Virus genome (UHGV): UHGV-0135983
Length of the DNA stretch: 35,851 nucleotides
Source of the DNA: a virus
Direction: 5' to 3' (one strand)
The notes under the pieces were generated by a model. The model had not been told where the DNA came from, searched no databases, and was given only the letters and a program-made list of their open reading frames with translations. Below, one piece after another: positions 1,108 to 33,650 of this stretch (position 1 is the first letter of the stretch; every line of letters begins with the position of its first letter). The position numbers and the translations under genes are program-made.

Positions 1108-1153
1108 GCCTTACCCCTCGGGGGTTCACTGTGTAGTGAAGCGAGGGTAAGGC
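1108..1153 (-). promoter_or_regulatory. 18-bp interrupted hairpin (6+6+6 bp) whose 3' arm covers the holin SD and abuts the ATG
   Basis: Pairings are 1108-1113/1148-1153, 1115-1120/1142-1147 and 1125-1130/1135-1140, with loop GTGT. All were checked base by base. Confidence 0.5.
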
Positions 1154-1177
1154 GTTAACCAGGTCGGAATCCTGACT
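1144..1177 (-). promoter_or_regulatory. Late-promoter candidate e (dyad + N12 + TACCCT) upstream of the lysis cassette
   Basis: Minus strand reads AGTCAGGATTCCGACC-N12-TACCCT, ending 37 nt upstream of the holin ATG. Confidence 0.5.
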
Positions 1178-3304: not shown

Positions 3305-3321
3305 ATGGGGAACTCCGGCGG

Positions 3322-4932
3322 CTAATAATCTACGGCGACCATGTGATCGCCATCGTTTGGTTGCCAATGTTCCCGCGCCTGTGCGGTCGGAATCCCGACC
3401 AATTTACCTATACGTACCGGAGTTGAGCTGATAGCACCGGAGCCGGAGTCGATAAAGTCATCGGGCTGATTAGTCAGCGCCGGGTTAAAGTCTCGCATCT
3501 GGTCGTACATTGGGCCGTCGAGCACGTCGGTGTGCGCCCAAAGGAACCGCGACGACAGCGGCGCTTCGAAGGCATCGAGGATGCGTTTCTGTTTATTGGT
3601 CACGCTGAATTCTTCCCGGACGCCGCAACCTGTACCCTTCAACGCCTGAATCAGCAATTTGCCGGCGAAGCTGCCCGGGCCGTTCACCTCGACGCAAATC
3701 AGGGGGATCTGATACTTCAACACCAGCTCTTTAATCTGCATCACCTGACCGCCGGTGATTTTGTCGTTGTCGTCAAATTCTGCCAGTTCGCCCGTAAGCC
3801 CCTGGCAAACATGCCAGTACAGATGCCCGCGCGCGTCGGTGAAAATCAGAGAGAACGCCGAGGCGTCGGCCTTAACTTTGCCGGTGGCCACATCCCACCA
3901 GGCGACAGCACCAACAATTTGCGTCTGGCCAAGCCACATCGAACAGGAGCGGTTCGCGTATCGGATTTCAGGCTGAACGTTGTATTCTCGGATACGGTCA
4001 GGATCAAGACGAACCTCGCCAACCGGTTTACTGTGCAGCTGGTACTGACTGTCCCATTCGTTAATTGTGCGAGTCTCGCGGCGGCGCTTTGTCATTTCCT
4101 CCGGAGTGAATCTTTCCGGCCATTCACAATCGGCGTAACAGTCAACCGTGGTACCGGGAGCCTCGGCAAACTCGATACCATCATCGTTAAGACGATAATC
4201 AACACCTTCAACGAGCAGTCGCGCGCCAATGTGAATACCGACGAAAACATATTCAGGCCGGAACGGTAACGAGTAACGGCTAGCGGTAGCCTGTTTTTCC
4301 TCGATGCGAAATTCTTTGCCGAATAGTTTGATGGTCAGACAGTCGGCGCCCATAGATTCAACCTCATCGTAAAGGCTATCGTGGGTATGCGGCGTGCCGA
4401 TAAACAGCTTTCGCCCGCCGGGGACAAGAATGTGTGTCTGTTCACCCAGACGATAACGCAGCTTTTCCCGCGCCTCCGGCGTCTGGATATTCCGGGGCAC
4501 TTCTACGTCATCGTTCTGACATTCATCGGCACGGGCCGAGGTGACGTTAGAGAGGATCCCCTTTGCGTACATGCTGCCGTTACGCATATCCAGCGAGCCG
4601 TTAACCCACCATTGCTCAACGGTTCCCTGTCCGTCGGGTAGCATACCTTTGGTCAGCGGATGATTGCGTAAAACGTTCTGCGTATCGCGGCTGGTTTTGT
4701 ACGCGGTGCCGTCAGCTTCAGACTGGTGAAGAATGCGGTACTGGCGGTTCTGGTAATATCGCCATGCGTTATACACCGCCAGAATGGTGGATTTTCCGAA
4801 GCCACGGAAACAGCGAAGCACCGCGAGATCCCCGCGGTGTTCCAGCCAGTGGCAGGCTCGATAATGGCAGTCGGGAACCTCCCACCCCATCCGCTCCGCC
4901 CATATGATGAAAAAGGCGACGAATGAAATCAT
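3322..4932 (-). CDS. Terminase large subunit
   Basis: Walker A-like motif CFRGFGKST is present. Size and position (after the small subunit, with an ATGA overlap at 4929-4932) fit. The C-terminal half looks nuclease-like. Confidence 0.85.
   Translation of the reverse strand: MISFVAFFIIWAERMGWEVPDCHYRACHWLEHRGDLAVLRCFRGFGKSTILAVYNAWRYYQNRQYRILHQSEADGTAYKTSRDTQNVLRNHPLTKGMLPDGQGTVEQWWVNGSLDMRNGSMYAKGILSNVTSARADECQNDDVEVPRNIQTPEAREKLRYRLGEQTHILVPGGRKLFIGTPHTHDSLYDEVESMGADCLTIKLFGKEFRIEEKQATASRYSLPFRPEYVFVGIHIGARLLVEGVDYRLNDDGIEFAEAPGTTVDCYADCEWPERFTPEEMTKRRRETRTINEWDSQYQLHSKPVGEVRLDPDRIREYNVQPEIRYANRSCSMWLGQTQIVGAVAWWDVATGKVKADASAFSLIFTDARGHLYWHVCQGLTGELAEFDDNDKITGGQVMQIKELVLKYQIPLICVEVNGPGSFAGKLLIQALKGTGCGVREEFSVTNKQKRILDAFEAPLSSRFLWAHTDVLDGPMYDQMRDFNPALTNQPDDFIDSGSGAISSTPVRIGKLVGIPTAQAREHWQPNDGDHMVAVDY
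3367..3400 (-). promoter_or_regulatory. Late-promoter candidate d, inside the terminase 3' coding region, upstream of the tail fibre
   Basis: Minus strand reads GGTCGGGATTCCGACC-N12-GAACAT, ending 63 nt upstream of the fibre ATG. Confidence 0.45.
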
Positions 4933-5270: not shown

Positions 5271-5299
5271 AAAAAAGCCCCGTGGTTATCCATAGGGCT
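5271..5299 (-). terminator. Intrinsic terminator-like hairpin plus U6 immediately upstream of the small-terminase ATG
   Basis: Minus-strand RNA is AGCCCU (5299-5294), a 12-nt loop, GGGGCU (5281-5276), then UUUUU and AUG. The stem has 5 Watson-Crick pairs plus one G.U pair. Confidence 0.45.
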
Positions 5300-5333
5300 A
5301 TAATGTGCCGGGCTAGAGGTCGGAATCCTGACT
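5300..5333 (-). promoter_or_regulatory. Late-promoter candidate c upstream of the terminase genes
   Basis: Minus strand reads AGTCAGGATTCCGACC-N12-CATTAT, ending 30 nt upstream of the ATG at 5270. Confidence 0.5.
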
Positions 5334-5404
5334 ATTGCATATGCAGCGATGTACGTATAAAACTAGCCGACATTAATATAATCATTTTCATTCAGAGGCT
5401 CCCT

Positions 5405-5842
5405 GTGAAAACTTTATTCCCCTTAATACTGTTTATCGTAACTTCTACCGTTTGCGCCAAAGAAGTTAAATATGACTTTCCTCCAGATGGGGAAATGGCA
5501 AAATCACTCAAACCAGAAATTGTTGGCGTGGCTAATTATGAAATGGTCAATAGAAGCGTGCGCTTAAAAGCTTTAGATGTTGGTGAAAAAAATGTTTCTC
5601 TCCTGGTAGTCATAGGTGCTACCGACACCAGAAAACCCGTTACTCAAGCTAACATCCCTGACAAACAATCAATCTCATTAACTAAACAGCAAATTGTGAA
5701 CAAATATTGTGCACCATTCGGGTATGGCAATTGGTACTTTGATGCCTTCAAACAGCGGGGTGTAAAACTGCACTATTACTTTTACTCGGCAGTAGACACC
5801 CCGTTATTTACATTCACGGTAAATAAATCTGATTGCGATTAA
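5405..5842 (+). CDS. Secreted (periplasmic) moron protein of unknown function
   Basis: GTG at 5405 lies 6 nt after GAGG. The signal peptide is VKTLFPLILFIVTSTVCA|KE, and there are two Cys in the mature part. The gene is AT-rich, opposite in orientation to all neighbours, and its stop overlaps the convergent gene. A possible promoter is TTGCAT (5335) with TATAAA (5356). Confidence 0.6.
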   Translation: MKTLFPLILFIVTSTVCAKEVKYDFPPDGEMAKSLKPEIVGVANYEMVNRSVRLKALDVGEKNVSLLVVIGATDTRKPVTQANIPDKQSISLTKQQIVNKYCAPFGYGNWYFDAFKQRGVKLHYYFYSAVDTPLFTFTVNKSDCD

Positions 5843-14962: not shown

Positions 14963-14992
14963 ATGAAAAAAGGCCGGGAGATATCCCCCGGC
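14963..14992 (-). terminator. Intrinsic terminator directly after the major capsid gene (T7 Tphi-like position)
   Basis: Minus strand reads GCCGGG, an 8-nt loop, CCCGGC, then CTTTTTTC. Confidence 0.6.
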
Positions 14993-15008: not shown

Positions 15009-15920
15009 TTATGCTACGAAATCGATGGCGACTACTTTGTTTTCCGCTGCGCGGCCTGCACCATAGGACGCATCGACGGAAATCTGAATGGTGTTGTTTT
15101 TATCGCGGCGCGGGCCGATATCGACGTTGTACTCTTCGCCGGTACCAAAATGCACAGCAGATTTACACCAGGCTGCGGCGGTTTTGGTGGTTACAGCGGG
15201 ATCACCTGCTGAAGCAGAATCCAGTTTTTCATACGCCAGCCACTTAAAGCCCAGCCAGTTACCAGACACTGCGCCTTCCTGCAGCATTTTCACTGCCATA
15301 AAGTCGGCGCTGGTCAGCGTGGTATCGCTGAGGATTTGGGTCAGCATGTCGGCGTTGTAGGTGATATACAGCTCTTCACCGTTCTGCTCGTCACACTCGT
15401 TACGGCGGAACATGGCTTTCGCGGCGATCAGCTTCGCTTTGGTCATCCCTGTACCGCCAGCAACGATTTTCTGCGATGCAGGCAAGGCAACTGGAGCGTA
15501 CGCGCCAGTATTGGAGGTTTTACGCAGAACGGTATCGAGCAGCGCGCGATAAATAACATCGTCTTTTTTGCGGTTGGATGCGGCCAGCGTCAGCTGCAAA
15601 TATGGCCCCTGCGGGTCAGCCAGCAGTTTGCGCAGGTCGCGCTTTTCCACTGGCACGAATACGCCATAGTCAGCCATCAGCGCATTACGGGTGCCGGCAT
15701 CAGGCAGATCCCAGACGGTATCACCGAAACGCTCGGTGATCTGGGTCATTTCGATGGTACCCATATCGTTGATGGTGAACGACGCACCGGTAATATTGCC
15801 ACGGTCGTAAACAGCAGCTTGCAGGCGGGAATCCTTCTGCTGTGCGGCAATTTCGAAAGAATCATGGAACTGCTGAACAAACGCAGCGGTGATCATGTTC
15901 TTAGCGGTATCAAATGACAT
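15009..15920 (-). CDS. Major capsid protein
   Basis: The ATG at 15920 follows a GGAG SD and gives MSFDTAKNMITAAF... The protein is 303 aa and lies between the scaffold and tail tubular genes. The longer ORF-track start at 16001 was rejected. Confidence 0.8.
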   Translation of the reverse strand: MSFDTAKNMITAAFVQQFHDSFEIAAQQKDSRLQAAVYDRGNITGASFTINDMGTIEMTQITERFGDTVWDLPDAGTRNALMADYGVFVPVEKRDLRKLLADPQGPYLQLTLAASNRKKDDVIYRALLDTVLRKTSNTGAYAPVALPASQKIVAGGTGMTKAKLIAAKAMFRRNECDEQNGEELYITYNADMLTQILSDTTLTSADFMAVKMLQEGAVSGNWLGFKWLAYEKLDSASAGDPAVTTKTAAAWCKSAVHFGTGEEYNVDIGPRRDKNNTIQISVDASYGAGRAAENKVVAIDFVA

Positions 15921-16056
15921 AACAATCACTCCAGAAAGTATCGCCTGCGGGGTATCGGTTTCCCGGCCCAAATCAGCACAATGCGGTTGGCGCTGGCGCA
16001 TTGCGGGAAAATCAGGTATCCGGCGTCCCCGCCGGGCTGGTTGTGGAGTGATTGTT
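15921..16056 (-). promoter_or_regulatory. Long-range 13-bp perfect anti-SD/SD pairing flanking the capsid 5' leader
   Basis: 16056-16044 (AACAAUCACUCCA) is the exact complement of 15933-15921 (UGGAGUGAUUGUU). The latter contains the capsid SD and abuts the AUG. Confidence 0.5.
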
Positions 16057-16084
16057 AGCGAGGAGAGCGGTCGGAATCCCGACC
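16051..16084 (-). promoter_or_regulatory. Late-promoter candidate b upstream of the capsid gene
   Basis: Minus strand reads GGTCGGGATTCCGACC-N12-AACAAT. Confidence 0.5.
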
Positions 16085-16109
16085 AAATGAGCGAAAGTAA
16101 GCCGTGCTG

Positions 16110-16994
16110 TTACCCTCTGGGTTCTTTTATCCTATAACCTGTGCCAGGCATGAATTCATCAATAACTCTTGCCGCGTGACCTATAACTCGAAACGCTGAG
16201 CGTGCTTCTTCATCGGTAATTTTAGTCGCTTTAGTCGGGTCATAATCAGGAGTTTGGTCATCGTCAAAATGTACTCGATAGCCAAATTTTGATATTTCTC
16301 TGAAAATGGAACTAACTGACCTATCAATAGTTGCCATAGTGTCCATTAATCTATTTTTATCCTCCTCAATTTTATTTTTTATTTTCTCATAAGGGCCTAG
16401 CTCATCTACTAAATCTTTAAGAGCATCCGACTTAGAATTTATTTCACCTTCAATTTCATTAAGTTTCCCTTCCGCCAACTCAAGCTTCGAACTTAAAATA
16501 TTAAATTGTTCTTCAGCTTCTTCATATGACTTCTTAATGCTCTCGATATCATGTGTAACTTTAGTAACCTTGAGTTCTTCTTCTGCATTCCTTTTTGCAA
16601 ACAGAGATGTTTGATAAGCTAGTGCGCTATCTGCTTTAGCTGTGTATTCAGCAATGATTTCACGAGCCTCACTCTCAGATTTTGCCCTTTTGATATCGTT
16701 ACCATCAGCGATTTTTTGCGCGCATCTTTGAAAAAAACTCACAGCATGACTAGCATAAGGAAAAAGAACGGCAATAATAAAACCCAAAAGGATAGGAGCA
16801 ACTACAGAATACCAAAAAATACATGGTTCACTTTTCACTTTAATGATTCTATCTTGTAGTTCTCCACTACCCATTAAAACTATCAATAAACTATCCCAGT
16901 TAAACCCCAGCCATGAGAGGACTATGAACCCGAAAAGAGGAGTGTTTATTCTTTGAATTAAAGTTTTCTTTACCGCATCAGCTAATTCGTCCAT
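16110..16994 (-). CDS. AT-rich moron: membrane-anchored coiled-coil protein of unknown function
   Basis: The protein is 294 aa with two predicted TM helices (res ~18-42 and ~57-80). A ~120-aa heptad-like charged region and a C-terminal globular part follow. The gene has its own promoter-like ATGACT-17-TTAAAT and an AAGGG SD. Confidence 0.7.
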   Translation of the reverse strand: MDELADAVKKTLIQRINTPLFGFIVLSWLGFNWDSLLIVLMGSGELQDRIIKVKSEPCIFWYSVVAPILLGFIIAVLFPYASHAVSFFQRCAQKIADGNDIKRAKSESEAREIIAEYTAKADSALAYQTSLFAKRNAEEELKVTKVTHDIESIKKSYEEAEEQFNILSSKLELAEGKLNEIEGEINSKSDALKDLVDELGPYEKIKNKIEEDKNRLMDTMATIDRSVSSIFREISKFGYRVHFDDDQTPDYDPTKATKITDEEARSAFRVIGHAARVIDEFMPGTGYRIKEPRG

Positions 16995-17066
16995 ACGCTT
17001 ACCCTTATGAAGAAACTATCGAAGGATATTTAAGAGTAAAAGGCAAGAAAAGTCATTAACTTTAAA

Positions 17067-17095
17067 TAGAAAAAGCCAGCGAAGTTATACTGGCC
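17067..17095 (-). terminator. Intrinsic terminator after the scaffold gene, upstream of the moron
   Basis: Minus strand reads GCCAG, a 10-nt loop, CTGGC, then TTTTTCTATTT. Confidence 0.55.
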
Positions 17096-17115
17096 TTTGA
17101 TATTACCGTGGCGTG

Positions 17116-17964
17116 TCACACTACGGTTTGCTCGCCGTAACGCTTCTGGTAGTACGCTTTAACCTGTGCAGATACGCGTTCATGGTCGGTATGCTTCGGA
17201 TTCATGTACGCTTCGGACTTCATCAGGTCGCGGATTGATTGCTGCTCTGCCGGGTTGCTGTCTGCGCCCGCTGGCGCGTCTTCCTGCATTTCCGCACCGA
17301 TTTTCGCCAGCATGCGGATCACCATCGGGTTATTGCCGATTTCATCAATGCGGCCGCGATCACCTTCATCGGTCAGGGAATTGAACGCGCGGAAAGCCAG
17401 ACCGATATTCTTGTTAAATTCCGCGTCAGTCTTCCAGACTTCGCGCAGCTGCGTGGTGGCCGCCTCCGAATCCAGCGCCGCGGCGCCGTTGACCAGTTCA
17501 GGCGCAATCTGCGCGTATTCGCTGATAATAAATCCCATCTGATCGTTAGTGATGCCCTTGGCGTGCGCCGACTTCATGAATGATTGCATGCGGGGATCGG
17601 CCTTGAACTCGTCCCAGTTGAAGCCCTCGGCCTTCACCTCAGGTGCATAATCATCTGCCGTTTTCGGCGGCGCGTCGCCGCTGCCCATGCGCTTTTCAAG
17701 GTGCGAGTAAGCATGCGCCAGTTTGCGGGCAGAGCCTTCAATGTCGAGTTTTCCACCTTCGCCCATAACGCGGTATTTTTCAGGTATCCAGTCATTCGCG
17801 CCCGGTTCGCCCGCTCCGGTGCTGAGAAGTGTATTGCCAGCAGAATTATCAGCGCCCTGATTTTCAGTACCACCGCCATTGCCACCATCATTACCCCCTG
17901 TGCTGCCTGCTGGCGCTTCGGCGCCCTGCTCGGCGTTCATGAATAAGTGTTTAATCTTCCACAT
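17116..17964 (-). CDS. Scaffolding protein
   Basis: The protein is 282 aa, acidic and low-complexity (a GGNDGGNGGG tract). It lies between the portal and capsid genes. Confidence 0.65.
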   Translation of the reverse strand: MWKIKHLFMNAEQGAEAPAGSTGGNDGGNGGGTENQGADNSAGNTLLSTGAGEPGANDWIPEKYRVMGEGGKLDIEGSARKLAHAYSHLEKRMGSGDAPPKTADDYAPEVKAEGFNWDEFKADPRMQSFMKSAHAKGITNDQMGFIISEYAQIAPELVNGAAALDSEAATTQLREVWKTDAEFNKNIGLAFRAFNSLTDEGDRGRIDEIGNNPMVIRMLAKIGAEMQEDAPAGADSNPAEQQSIRDLMKSEAYMNPKHTDHERVSAQVKAYYQKRYGEQTVV

Positions 17965-20509: not shown

Positions 20510-20806
20510 TCATTGTGTGTTGCCCTTCTGGTCAGTTTCCCGACCAAAAACAGGGCGGCGGAACGTCCACCACTGCCGATAAAGCACTGTGGGGAGTTTT
20601 TTACGGTCTGAGCTGGTAGCCAGACACCAGAGAGCGATAAGTGCCTCACCGTGACCGTGGCGAGGTTCTGATCCGGATTTCCAACCGAGAACGGCAGATT
20701 TCGAAACGCCAAGTTCATCGGCGATTTGCTGAGTGGTGAGGTTTTTTCGTGTCAGGTCAGTAATGACTCTGAACCAGTCTGTACGGAAGGTGGCGACCAG
20801 CGGCAT
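20510..20806 (-). CDS. Small HTH DNA-binding protein, a candidate late-gene regulator
   Basis: LTTQQIADELGVSKSAVLGW is a sigma-region-4/HTH_23-like helix-turn-helix. This is the last gene before the virion module. Confidence 0.6.
   Translation of the reverse strand: MPLVATFRTDWFRVITDLTRKNLTTQQIADELGVSKSAVLGWKSGSEPRHGHGEALIALWCLATSSDRKKLPTVLYRQWWTFRRPVFGRETDQKGNTQ
20512..20545 (-). promoter_or_regulatory. Late-promoter candidate a
   Basis: Minus strand reads GGTCGGGAAACTGACC-N12-CACAAT. It lies inside the 3' end of the HTH gene, 30 nt upstream of the ATG at 20482. Confidence 0.5.
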
Positions 20807-31430: not shown

Positions 31431-33650
31431 ATGACCATCTACAACGGCTTATTTGAGCCAAAGAAATCGGCGATTAAAGACTGCGGCGCCGTGCAGCTGG
31501 CGATCGCCATCGATGCGCCAAACAAAAAAGTGGCCGAAAGCATTATGACCGGCAAACTCTGGGAATCATACCCGGCCAATGGTGACAACTATTTCAAACC
31601 GAAACTGTGGGAACACGTTGAAGGCCAGCCGCTGCCGACCGTTGGCCAGTTCGATGAGTCATTCGCCCAGCAGCATACTTTTGACGGTGAAAAATGGGTT
31701 TCTACTGCGCAGGATAGCGCTTCCGGAAGCAGTGCAGGTTTACCTGCCGACGATGAAGTGATCGACCTGATGACCGTTTCCGCAGAGGAACGCTTTGCTG
31801 CCGTCCTGCTTTTTAGCACCGCTGCGATTGATGGCCATCTTTATTCTCAGGTTGTGGATTATCTGGATAACCTGAAAAACCACGATGGCGAATTTGAAGA
31901 GGAAGATCGCTTTAACTTTAATGTGCTGTGCGCCCTACAAAATAACTTCCCGGTTCAAAGCATGCATGTGGAAGGTCTGAATAACCTTGTTCAGGGGATT
32001 TTCTCCCACTTTGAAAACCAGACGCCAGGCAAAGCGGCTATCTCTCAGTTCGTTAAACGCTGGCTTGAGAATCCGGGCAAGCGCGACGAACTGGCCCCCG
32101 GCGTATATAAAAATACCGCTCTCAGCACCAGCACCAGCACCAGCACCGATGATAAAACACCCGTGGTAATTTCTAAGCGGGGTTATAAACACACATATGC
32201 AACGCTGGATCAGGAGATCGCTACCGCCCTTCTCCCGCTGGCGCCTGATGCGCCGGTACTATCCGGAAACCTTCTGGACGCTAAGAAGATGATTGCCGAT
32301 GACCGGGAAGATTTTAAACGCTGGTCTGCATCGCTGCACACCACTCCGCAGATACTCAAATATGACCGCGCCAGCATCTTCGGTGTAGTGCAGAACGTAC
32401 CGGCGAAAGATACCTACCATTTCCCTGACAGCCTGCGCCGCCATATCGATTCATGGCTGGAGGCCAACGGCCGCTTTGAAGAAACCGATACAGGATCCGT
32501 TAAACAGACAGAGGCAACGCAAAATATCGCCTCAAACGTGGGCGAAAAAGCGGAAGTGCCGCAGACGGTTGTAACCGATAACCAAGCGAAACAGGCGCGT
32601 GAGGCGCTCAACGATATGGGCTATGGCGTATATGCATCTGGTGAAGGTGCGGAACCGGAAGATAAGTTAAGCGTTAAGGCTGAGAAAATAGCAGATGAAG
32701 CTGCTCGTTTGTCTCGTGATATTAACCTCAAAGATCGCATGCCAGATGCCGGAGATTTGATTCCAGCAATTCAACCAAATGAAAATATAGCCTCAAAAAA
32801 AATTGAATCATATCTATCTGAATTGAATGACGACCAGGCCAAAGCAAACCTTAGCGTCTGGAATCGCGTCCAGCGCACAGATCCGGCCTTCGTCGAAAAG
32901 AACAGTTTCGGCGCAGGGCTTCACTCAATCCGGGCGCAGTACATGCTGATGCGCGCAACGGAAGTTCTCGGAATGGAAGGAACCGGTTGGGGCGTTGATA
33001 TCAAAGAAGAGCGCATAGATCGAGGTGTGCCGCTTATGGAGCCAATACAGGACCAATCAGGAAAAATAATTGGCCAGAAACCGGTAAGGGACGGGGATGG
33101 CTCATTATTCTGTTTATCCGTACATACAATTCGGATTGAACTCTGGTACCTGCGAGACGGAAAGAAGGGGCGCATTCCGGCCTATGGACATACGGATTAC
33201 ATCACCAAGGGTGGTGATGGTGCATTAAAAATGGAGAAAGAAGCCGCCAAAAAATCACTGACTGACGCTACAACCAAAGCACTATCCCATCTCGGATTTG
33301 GTGCAGACGTGTACATGAACATGCATAACGACAACGAATACACTTCAAAATTGAATGAGATATTCGAAATCAAAAAAGCCAGCGAAAGCATAGAAGATAT
33401 AGTGCGACTTCGTCAGGAATTAGACGACGATCTTACCTCCGTTGCTGAAACCCTATCTACTGGCGTGACTGTTAACGAAGTTGAAAAGGTTTTTGGCACG
33501 ATAGCCCGAAAACTCGAAGTTCACCGCAAGGATGCAGAATCAAAAGGCGATACACAGCGCTCTCGGTACCTCAGTGGCCGGTTGCGCCGCCTGACTGAAA
33601 TCAAAAATGGACGTCTCGCCGAACTAAATAAATCCGAGGAGAAAGCATAA
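31431..33650 (+). CDS. Large fusion protein: unknown ~470-aa N-terminal region plus Rad52/Sak-type single-strand annealing domain
   Basis: The C-terminal part contains GLHSIRAQYMLMRATEVLGMEGTGWG...KEAAKKSLTDATTKALSHLGFGADVY, a Rad52-family signature. The RBS cassette lies at 31419. Confidence 0.6.
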   Translation: MTIYNGLFEPKKSAIKDCGAVQLAIAIDAPNKKVAESIMTGKLWESYPANGDNYFKPKLWEHVEGQPLPTVGQFDESFAQQHTFDGEKWVSTAQDSASGSSAGLPADDEVIDLMTVSAEERFAAVLLFSTAAIDGHLYSQVVDYLDNLKNHDGEFEEEDRFNFNVLCALQNNFPVQSMHVEGLNNLVQGIFSHFENQTPGKAAISQFVKRWLENPGKRDELAPGVYKNTALSTSTSTSTDDKTPVVISKRGYKHTYATLDQEIATALLPLAPDAPVLSGNLLDAKKMIADDREDFKRWSASLHTTPQILKYDRASIFGVVQNVPAKDTYHFPDSLRRHIDSWLEANGRFEETDTGSVKQTEATQNIASNVGEKAEVPQTVVTDNQAKQAREALNDMGYGVYASGEGAEPEDKLSVKAEKIADEAARLSRDINLKDRMPDAGDLIPAIQPNENIASKKIESYLSELNDDQAKANLSVWNRVQRTDPAFVEKNSFGAGLHSIRAQYMLMRATEVLGMEGTGWGVDIKEERIDRGVPLMEPIQDQSGKIIGQKPVRDGDGSLFCLSVHTIRIELWYLRDGKKGRIPAYGHTDYITKGGDGALKMEKEAAKKSLTDATTKALSHLGFGADVYMNMHNDNEYTSKLNEIFEIKKASESIEDIVRLRQELDDDLTSVAETLSTGVTVNEVEKVFGTIARKLEVHRKDAESKGDTQRSRYLSGRLRRLTEIKNGRLAELNKSEEKA

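Follow-up and report, generated by a model that had tools for sequence, protein, structure and literature searches.

Several putative late promoters of a temperate T7-type prophage overlap the 5′ strand of predicted helices at their own ribosome-binding sites

UHGV-0135983 is a 35,851-nt stretch of viral DNA (the whole of which we call the window) that represents a temperate prophage, encoding an integrase, a cI-like helix-turn-helix (HTH) repressor, DnaB and methylases; directly before its major capsid gene, on the minus strand, lies an exact inverted repeat whose 13-nt arms, AACAATCACTCCA (16056-16044) and TGGAGTGATTGTT (15933-15921), are separated by 110 nt (16043-15934). The downstream arm holds the Shine-Dalgarno (SD) sequence of the capsid gene, while the upstream arm coincides with the core of a putative late promoter, P4. 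We think it moderately likely that this promoter-embedded arm, complementary to the capsid ribosome-binding site (RBS), couples capsid translation to initiation at P4; the design of a promoter laid over the 5′ arm of an RBS helix recurs at several late promoters of the prophage and its relatives.

An inverted repeat between a late promoter and the capsid RBS

The capsid SD is GGAG at 15932-15929, its arm abuts the ATG at 15920, and a repeat search extends the arm pair to 17 nt at 94% complementarity (15920-15936 with 16041-16057). No other perfect inverted repeat in the 35.8-kb window reaches 13 bp with a loop of 3-200 nt, and first-order Markov simulations yield 0.06 such repeats per window (p ~0.06). 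Arm length alone is thus only marginally unusual, and the significance of the repeat lies in its placement, a −10 region against the capsid RBS. The 19 nt surrounding the hexamer and the 23 nt up to the AUG form a duplex with a predicted energy of −20.9 kcal/mol, which 0.07% of 3000 random 23-nt windows equal, and the minimum-free-energy fold of the long leader includes the helix as 14 bp (−74.6 kcal/mol, z = −2.6). We rejected an in-frame ATG at 16001, inside a leader hairpin and opening a 330-aa open reading frame (ORF), as the capsid start: the leaders of relatives carry 1-2-nt indels and RefSeq relatives start MSFD, which together place the start at 15920.

Folding of RNAs with different 5′ ends revealed a thermodynamic switch. 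From the position of the hexamer, P4 is expected to start at about 16046-16042 (A16044). In partition-function calculations, RNAs beginning at 16052, 16056, 16060, 16112, 16250 or 16400 pair their arms with a probability of 0.95-0.99 and leave the SD unpaired with a probability of 0.00, and those beginning at 16049, 16046 or 16043 have an arm-pair probability of at most 0.17 and an SD unpaired probability of 0.33-0.40. Upstream context of up to 520 nt makes no difference (0.97-0.99). To open its capsid RBS, read-through RNA needs 21.0 kcal/mol and promoter-initiated RNA 7.0; read-through RNA whose 19-nt −10 region is shuffled needs 8.8. An earlier note on this DNA had described the two segments as exact reverse complements about 110 nt apart, the second holding the capsid SD and touching the AUG, and had proposed that RNA started upstream shuts the capsid RBS, while promoter-started RNA, which lacks the arm, stays open; direct reading bears out the former, and folding of both 5′-end variants agrees, in silico, with the latter.

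The capsid would accordingly occupy its own late unit, composed of a terminator, in some phages a moron, P4, a 125-nt leader, the capsid gene and a second terminator. RNA arriving from upstream, whether by read-through of the scaffold terminator, from the moron or as a lysogenic transcript, would carry the 16056-16044 segment and would close a 13-14-bp long-range helix around the folded leader, burying the capsid RBS. P4-initiated RNA, with its predicted +1 at A16044, would be without the 5′ arm and hence translatable, so that translation would be coupled to initiation at the proper late promoter. The transcription start site (TSS), the identity of the activator, the translational effect and the selective purpose are parts of this scheme that we infer.

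Putative late promoters that share the design

P4 belongs to a family of late promoters in which a dyad, RGTCRG-N4-CYGACC, is followed after 12 nt by a −10 element, nAnaaT. Five copies of the dyad are present in the window where 0.17 are expected, all on the minus strand, which is the late-gene orientation, and they head all five late units: holin, tail fibre, the 113-aa protein with terL, capsid and the terS-like gene (dyad-to-hexamer spans 1144-1177, 3367-3400, 5300-5333, 16051-16084 and 20512-20545). The respective hexamers, TACCCT, GAACAT, CATTAT, AACAAT and CACAAT, all stand exactly 12 nt after their dyad (+13 to +18). Relatives were drawn from E. coli genomes, GTDB genomes and IMG/VR, the last giving at least 120 stretches and about 180 distinct sites among the matches listed in a scan for the dyad; individual relatives are labelled by L-numbers (L001, L004, the L054 group, L206 and so on). 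Again among the matches listed, over 170 distinct sites with the dyad are present in related phages. In 48 non-redundant sites, picked blind to the hexamer, information downstream of the dyad is confined to +14 (A in 37/48) and +18 (T in 35/48), and these equal A-11 and T-7 of a −10 element, hexamer positions 2 and 6. AACAAT of P4 has this A and this T, as expected of a sigma-70 −10 element, and the five-copy motif and 48-site profile lend independent support to the earlier note's view of 16056-16051 as the −10 element of a late promoter. A sigma-70 consensus scan found no −35 hexamer (TTGACA-like, 16-18 nt upstream) on the minus strand of the leader; a dyad in place of the −35 implies dependence on an accessory factor.

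A candidate for this factor is a 98-aa HTH protein of the phage, whose gene overlaps at its 3′ end the dyad of P5, the promoter of the terS-like gene. It has a syntenic homologue in Yersinia phage YeP4 (50% identity), and a dyad promoter lies just downstream of the homologue in 24 of the 26 loci that encode one; our searches returned no solved-structure or named relative. Judging from this arrangement, the HTH protein probably controls the dyad promoters, presumably by binding the dyad. Scans of ORFs against Pfam and PHROGs brought up no gene for a phage RNA polymerase; one of the ORFs, of 739 aa and in the early region (31431-33647, plus strand), adjoins a Gp157-like gene and matches no Pfam family at E <= 0.01. 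A literature search for the dyad motif gave a single irrelevant match with no mention of the motif, and one for BPP-1-like late promoters or moron insulation found nothing; the promoter family and its candidate regulator look new.

The dyad might instead act in RNA, as a hairpin for a phage translational activator, similar to Com of Mu, that melts the RBS helix in a single long late transcript, in which case the hexamers would not be promoters. The dyad can indeed fold as a 6-bp hairpin, and its position relative to an RBS-sequestering helix is always 5′. Its sequence variation argues otherwise: among the 177 listed sites, dyad pairs 1/16 read A.C in 52 and pairs 5/12 in 39, and A-U replaces them just once, a tolerance of 'mismatches' that points to a DNA element and led us to reject the RNA hairpin. 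The fixed 12-nt spacing to a hexamer with A2 and T6 would also be left without explanation, the element directly follows intrinsic terminators, and P5 and many relatives have the dyad with no helix, which makes the activator-hairpin idea very improbable.

The design seen at P4 recurs at other dyad promoters of the window. At P1, an arm overlapping the hexamer, GCCUUACCC-UCG, pairs with CGAGGGGUAAGGC beside the holin AUG at −21.0 kcal/mol (about −20 in 32 relatives), and at P2 the arm GGGAACAUUGGC pairs with GCCGGAGUUCCC at −18.6 kcal/mol (about −18 in 30 relatives). Cognate pairs at P1, P2 and P4 (−21.0, −18.6 and −20.9 kcal/mol) stand well apart from non-cognate promoter/RBS pairs, which average −6.3 ± 2.2 kcal/mol and at best reach −10.9. 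P3 has a terminator-like variant, a hairpin whose 5′ arm begins at the first base past the hexamer and fills −6 to −1. Relatives conserve this hairpin, L206 with a compensatory AGCCUC/GAGGCU change, and its layout suggests that upstream transcripts would terminate there and promoter transcripts would escape.

The relatives show the same behaviour with arms of different sequence. We computed RBS opening costs for long (read-through) RNA, short (promoter-initiated) RNA and long RNA with a shuffled arm; in this order, and in kcal/mol, they are 13.2, 6.6 and 8.9 for the capsid (n = 73), 12.9, 5.4 and 6.8 for site 3, 18.1, 10.0 and 12.1 for the holin, 11.5, 6.6 and 8.8 for the fibre, and 7.6, 5.0 and 6.4 for terS, with 10.2, 9.3 and 9.6 at unrelated sites. 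Capsid opening lies above the shuffled-arm controls in 59/73 distinct leaders, and the difference between long and short exceeds 3 kcal/mol in 60/73 relatives. YeP4 has its own arm pairs at the holin (UAAGCACC:GGUGCUUA) and capsid (CACUCCC:GGGAGU), fibre type B has UGGCAGUUAA:UUAAC-CUGCCA, and divergent terS types have GGCUCC:GGAGCC, ACUCCGA:UCGGAGU and CCUCC:GGAGG; the YeP4 and terS-type arms are unrelated in sequence, yet each matches its own RBS. A permutation test over 39 non-redundant promoters gave a cognate mean of −10.75 versus −7.63 kcal/mol, with 0/20,000 derangements reaching the cognate mean. The holin and fibre helices are consistently retained in relatives, the holin helix with 90.5% of cells paired.

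Conservation of the capsid helix itself is modest, and several observations weigh against a selected function. Across alignment A1, 71 distinct Enterobacterales capsid leaders, the perfect 13/13 helix is a minority variant found in the window, L004 and the L054 group. The commonest E. coli-clade arm variant, AACAAUCuCcCCA, brings two uncompensated mismatches (11/13); one clade has CAUUAUCACUCCA:UGGAGUGAUAA, 11 bp and partly compensatory; and the remaining clades retain just 7-9 bp. Cells of the capsid helix are paired in 79.7% of cases versus 76.6% in shuffles, most positions have 10-33 unpaired cells, and most arm changes are uncompensated. Its covariation score of 0.070, with three pairs showing double-sided changes, is no better than that of slid controls (0.028-0.069), and RNAalifold run on the alignment does not select the helix. 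Changes at the holin site are likewise one-sided and G.U-preserving, with no double compensations. Complementarity is missing at P5 in the window and at beta-proteobacterial-type capsid promoters (−2 to −4 kcal/mol at the latter), which makes the design common but not a requirement. Part of the baseline complementarity could come from C-rich discriminators that face GGAG-type SDs. As neither the capsid nor the holin helix shows classic covariation, support for the design comes from its recurrence across promoters.

The capsid helix might be a functionless by-product, in which a C-rich discriminator (CnCUCC) lies opposite a GGAG-type SD by chance and the further 6 bp (AACAAU:AUUGUU) are an inherited accident of the lineage. 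The minority status of the perfect 13 bp, the largely uncompensated changes and the lack of complementarity in beta-proteobacterial relatives all fit such an origin, as does the appearance of a perfect repeat of at least 13 bp in about 6% of simulated windows. It is harder to reconcile with the 0.07% of random windows that pair as well with the P4 −10 region, with the 59 of 73 leaders that are costlier to open than shuffled-arm controls, and with the holin, fibre, site 3, YeP4 and divergent terS types, which behave alike with unrelated sequences (none of the 20,000 permutations). We regard a by-product as unlikely and retain the promoter-embedded arm as the preferred account.

The long-range helix might also be a processing or stability element of a polycistronic late mRNA, either a T7-style RNase III site, as the earlier note had suggested as an alternative, or a protective stem. 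T7 places RNase III sites between genes, the structural gene order here is T7-like, and the pairing can be drawn out to 17 nt if one mismatch is allowed. The contiguous 13-14 bp of the window, which fall to 7-11 bp in most relatives, are nevertheless short for RNase III and poorly conserved in length; T7 sites lie downstream of promoters, inside promoter transcripts, whereas here the 5′ arm overlaps the −10 and is excluded from P4 RNA; and the P3 equivalent is a plain intrinsic terminator. The irregular, conserved stem of about two turns within processed transcripts that marks T7-type RNase III sites is not what we see, and a processing or stability role seems very unlikely.

Table 1. Positions of the arms, promoters, genes, terminators and leader RNA discussed in the text
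Feature	Position	Strand	Details
Upstream (anti-RBS) arm, AACAAUCACUCCA	16044..16056	−	Spans −10 hexamer, discriminator and predicted +1 (A16044)
Downstream arm, UGGAGUGAUUGUU	15921..15933	−	Holds SD GGAG (15932-15929); abuts capsid AUG (ATG 15920)
Major capsid protein gene	15009..15920	−	303 aa, MSFDT...; RefSeq relatives named 'phage capsid protein', identical ATG; tblastn against phages
16-bp dyad GGTCGGGATTCCGACC	16069..16084	−	Putative operator of late promoter P4 (capsid); occupies −35 position
−10-like hexamer AACAAT of P4	16051..16056	−	Exactly 12 nt past dyad
Late promoter P1 (holin)	1108..1177	−	Dyad 1177-1162; hexamer TACCCT 1149-1144; 5′ arm 1153-1142 pairs with 1120-1108, the holin RBS; ATG 1107; holin assigned by profile match
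Late promoter P2 (tail fibre)	3305..3400	−	Dyad 3400-3385; hexamer GAACAT 3372-3367; 5′ arm 3374-3363 pairs with 3319-3308, the fibre RBS; ATG 3304
Late promoter P3	5271..5333	−	Dyad 5333-5318; hexamer CATTAT 5305-5300; terminator-like hairpin 5299-5276 and U-run; SD of 113-aa gene (ATG 5270, then terL) in 3′ arm
Late promoter P5 (terS-like gene)	20512..20545	−	Dyad 20545-20530; hexamer CACAAT 20517-20512; without anti-RBS arm in this window
98-aa HTH protein	20513..20806	−	Candidate dyad-binding late regulator; phrog_16553, E = 2e-42; gene 3′ end overlaps P5 dyad
Intrinsic terminator after scaffold gene	17071..17098	−	Directly upstream of dyad in moron-less relatives
Moron ORF, 294 aa	16110..16994	−	Between scaffold terminator and dyad; GC 33-39% versus about 55%; PHROG without known function
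Strong intrinsic terminator	14973..14992	−	Directly past capsid gene; 8-bp stem with 7 GC pairs, T-run
Structured capsid 5′ untranslated region	15934..16043	−	Module B 16038-16012; hairpin C 16005-15977; module D 15969-15950; AGGCGA tail (RNAalifold)

The capsid transcription unit and its leader RNA

In the order of its genes the late module is of T7/BPP-1 type: terS-like, portal, Bbp19-like, scaffold, capsid, tail tube A and B, internal virion proteins, the 113-aa protein, terL, tail fibre and holin. Among cultured phages, its nearest relatives are YeP4, YeP5 and YeP6, temperate phages of Yersinia (capsid identity 84%, tblastn against phages), near-identical proteins are present in Klebsiella and Raoultella, and megablast of a 1.7-kb region against phages returned no match. 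With terminators after both scaffold and capsid genes (Table 1), the capsid is a self-contained unit. The tail and internal-protein genes that fill the 9 kb past the capsid terminator, where the next dyad promoter is not reached before 5333, must rely on read-through, comparable to the T-phi arrangement of T7.

Where relatives lack the moron, an intrinsic terminator comes after the scaffold stop, with CATTTGGTCGGGATTCCGACC immediately behind it; at exactly the moron point, relatives have another insert, an opposite-strand insert or none. A scan for terminators found none between the moron stop and the capsid leader, so moron transcripts would enter the capsid gene. The earlier note had placed an autonomous moron promoter near 17040, where our scan of the minus strand does not reach a sigma-70 consensus; the best candidate by eye is TTTTCT-N17-TATCCT, with 7/12 matches. 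Overall, the structural and promoter logic of that note stands, and extends to a family-wide design, but neither the moron promoter, insulation from which was the purpose that the note proposed, nor the note's RNase III alternative is supported.

Adaptation to this moron does not account for the helix, which is present in moron-less relatives with a terminator there and in others with opposite-strand inserts, and so predates the moron; nor is the strength of the helix tied to a same-strand moron, L001 having an opposite-strand insert and 12/13 pairs and L004 and the L054 group a terminator and 13/13. We rejected translational coupling, as 54 nt separate the moron stop (16110) from the arm downstream of it and, in moron-less relatives, the scaffold stop is about 90 nt upstream.

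Foreign, low-GC cargo is found right upstream of dyad promoters at two hot spots in the window, 16085-17070 and 5334-5838, the latter of 37-44% GC and with an opposite-strand ORF (5282-5842) that has a signal-peptide-like segment. Similar inserts lie upstream of the dyad in L001 (3186-3480), L016, L043, L056, L071-L077, L115 and L130, and the cargo differs between relatives and lies on either strand.

Between the arms, and wholly within the predicted promoter-initiated mRNA, is a conserved structured RNA. Module B has an outer CAG:CUG, a bulged C, an inner CCGGCG:CGCCGG and a 3′ internal loop AUAC; module D repeats this anatomy, the two near-identical modules having AUAC/ACAA as their 3′ internal loops; and hairpin C, of 9 bp, has the conserved loop yMAGCGCCA. 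In the Enterobacterales alignment, eight pairs show double-sided changes and the covariation score is 0.19, versus at most 0.082 for slid alignments. A covariance model of the leader (R1) has exactly one match in each phage, in every case directly before the capsid ATG, and its matches range from Enterobacterales to Betaproteobacteria, including phages of Moraxellaceae, Rhodoferax, Massilia, Pseudoduganella, Roseateles, Pseudomonas, Herbaspirillum, Gilliamella and Entomomonas; an Acinetobacter clade is without the RNA. In the model-fitted alignment, 22 of 24 pairs are double-sided, 91.5% of cells are paired versus 64% when shuffled, and the covariation score reaches 0.64 versus at most 0.094 slid.

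A possible pseudoknot between YGCC of the hairpin-C loop (15986-15996) and the conserved GGCR of the tail (15941-15946) could form in most sequences, but is inconsistent at 3-5 bp; the variants UGCC:GGCA (L046) and CCGA:UCGG (L020, L021) fit, and others have 3 bp. The likeness of the two modules hints at a dimeric protein or RNA polymerase as ligand, and one may speculate about a role as translational operator, mRNA stabiliser or put-like antiterminator for the capsid terminator. As cmscan of 15500-17500 gave no Rfam match in the leader (E <= 10), this RNA motif too looks new.

The same interior bears on whether the arms are terminal inverted repeats of a small mobile element, similar to a miniature inverted-repeat transposable element (MITE), before the capsid gene. 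Perfect 13-bp inverted repeats around about 110 nt, beside a moron insertion hot spot, have the outward form of one. What they enclose, however, is a covarying RNA motif found upstream of the capsid in all relatives from Enterobacterales to Betaproteobacteria, with arms that vary, the window holds a single copy, and no empty site exists. The hallmarks of a MITE or small insertion sequence are thus missing, and the conserved interior and single copy effectively refute this origin.

We tentatively extend the promoter-embedded arm to a wider proposal, that temperate T7-morphotype (BPP-1/YeP4-like) phages of Proteobacteria may run their late genes from an undescribed class of activator-dependent promoter (RGTCRG-N4-CYGACC, N12, nAnaaT) with a built-in 5′ strand of an RBS helix or terminator, which would insulate each late unit (holin, fibre, terL, capsid) from anything upstream in both transcription and translation, and that their capsid mRNAs carry a new, widely conserved two-module RNA. 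If true, this would explain how morons can sit directly upstream of dyad promoters without capsid or holin leakage in lysogens, and its confirmation would supply a mechanistic reason for the build-up of morons at particular intergenic hot spots. The motif and the candidate regulator offer an easily recognised handle on widespread, unstudied prophages of Klebsiella, Raoultella, E. coli, Yersinia, Serratia and Betaproteobacteria; the dyad could serve annotation and the construction of tightly insulated expression cassettes, and, independently of both, the capsid-leader RNA is a candidate cis-regulatory RNA that would be new.

Relation to other phage systems

In Lpa-dependent promoters of P1, Mor/C promoters of Mu, Ogr promoters of P2 and MotA promoters of T4, an activator site takes the place of the −35. 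The dyad promoters resemble them in having a −10 without a recognisable −35 and a conserved upstream protein-binding motif, and differ in the motif itself: RGTCRG-N4-CYGACC, centred at about −32.5, matches none of theirs.

The capsid unit resembles phi10-gene 10-T-phi of T7 in its order of portal, scaffold, capsid, tail tube A and B, internal proteins and fibre, in the dedicated promoter directly before the capsid gene and in the strong terminator directly after it. In contrast to T7, the promoters here look sigma-70-dependent with an accessory DNA-binding protein, and the capsid leader is another, larger structured RNA. Fold-back inhibition in IS10 and IS50 reportedly follows a related logic, outside transcripts carrying a segment that pairs with the RBS and native ones lacking it; there, it is said, the gene is the transposase of an insertion sequence and is served by a single promoter.

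The closest parallel is phage T4, from which this type of mechanism is already known. As two accounts describe it, early and middle read-through RNA of genes e (lysozyme), soc, 49 and I-TevI folds the SD/AUG into a helix, and the late promoter lies within the DNA of the helix's 5′ strand, so that late RNA is without the arm and is translated (PMC3014915; PMC2988022). Both features appear here: in silico, the RBS of upstream-started transcripts lies in a stable helix, and, given the predicted TSS, the promoter lies over the DNA of the 5′ strand, leaving its own transcripts without that strand. The alternative-5′-end logic matches, and takes in a lysis gene in both phages. The differences are that T4 is a lytic myovirus and the present phage a temperate podovirus-type prophage; that T4 uses the gp55-dependent TATAAATA, compared with a dyad operator and an nAnaaT −10 here; that T4 hairpins are local, whereas the capsid helix is long-range and closes a 110-nt loop around a three-hairpin leader; and that the design, known here from sequence and folding, is used at most late units, including an intrinsic-terminator variant at P3. 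If confirmed, it would bring the T4 principle of a late promoter within an inhibitory hairpin to temperate phages, where the issue would be lysogenic leakage of lethal or wasteful late genes rather than early-versus-late timing.

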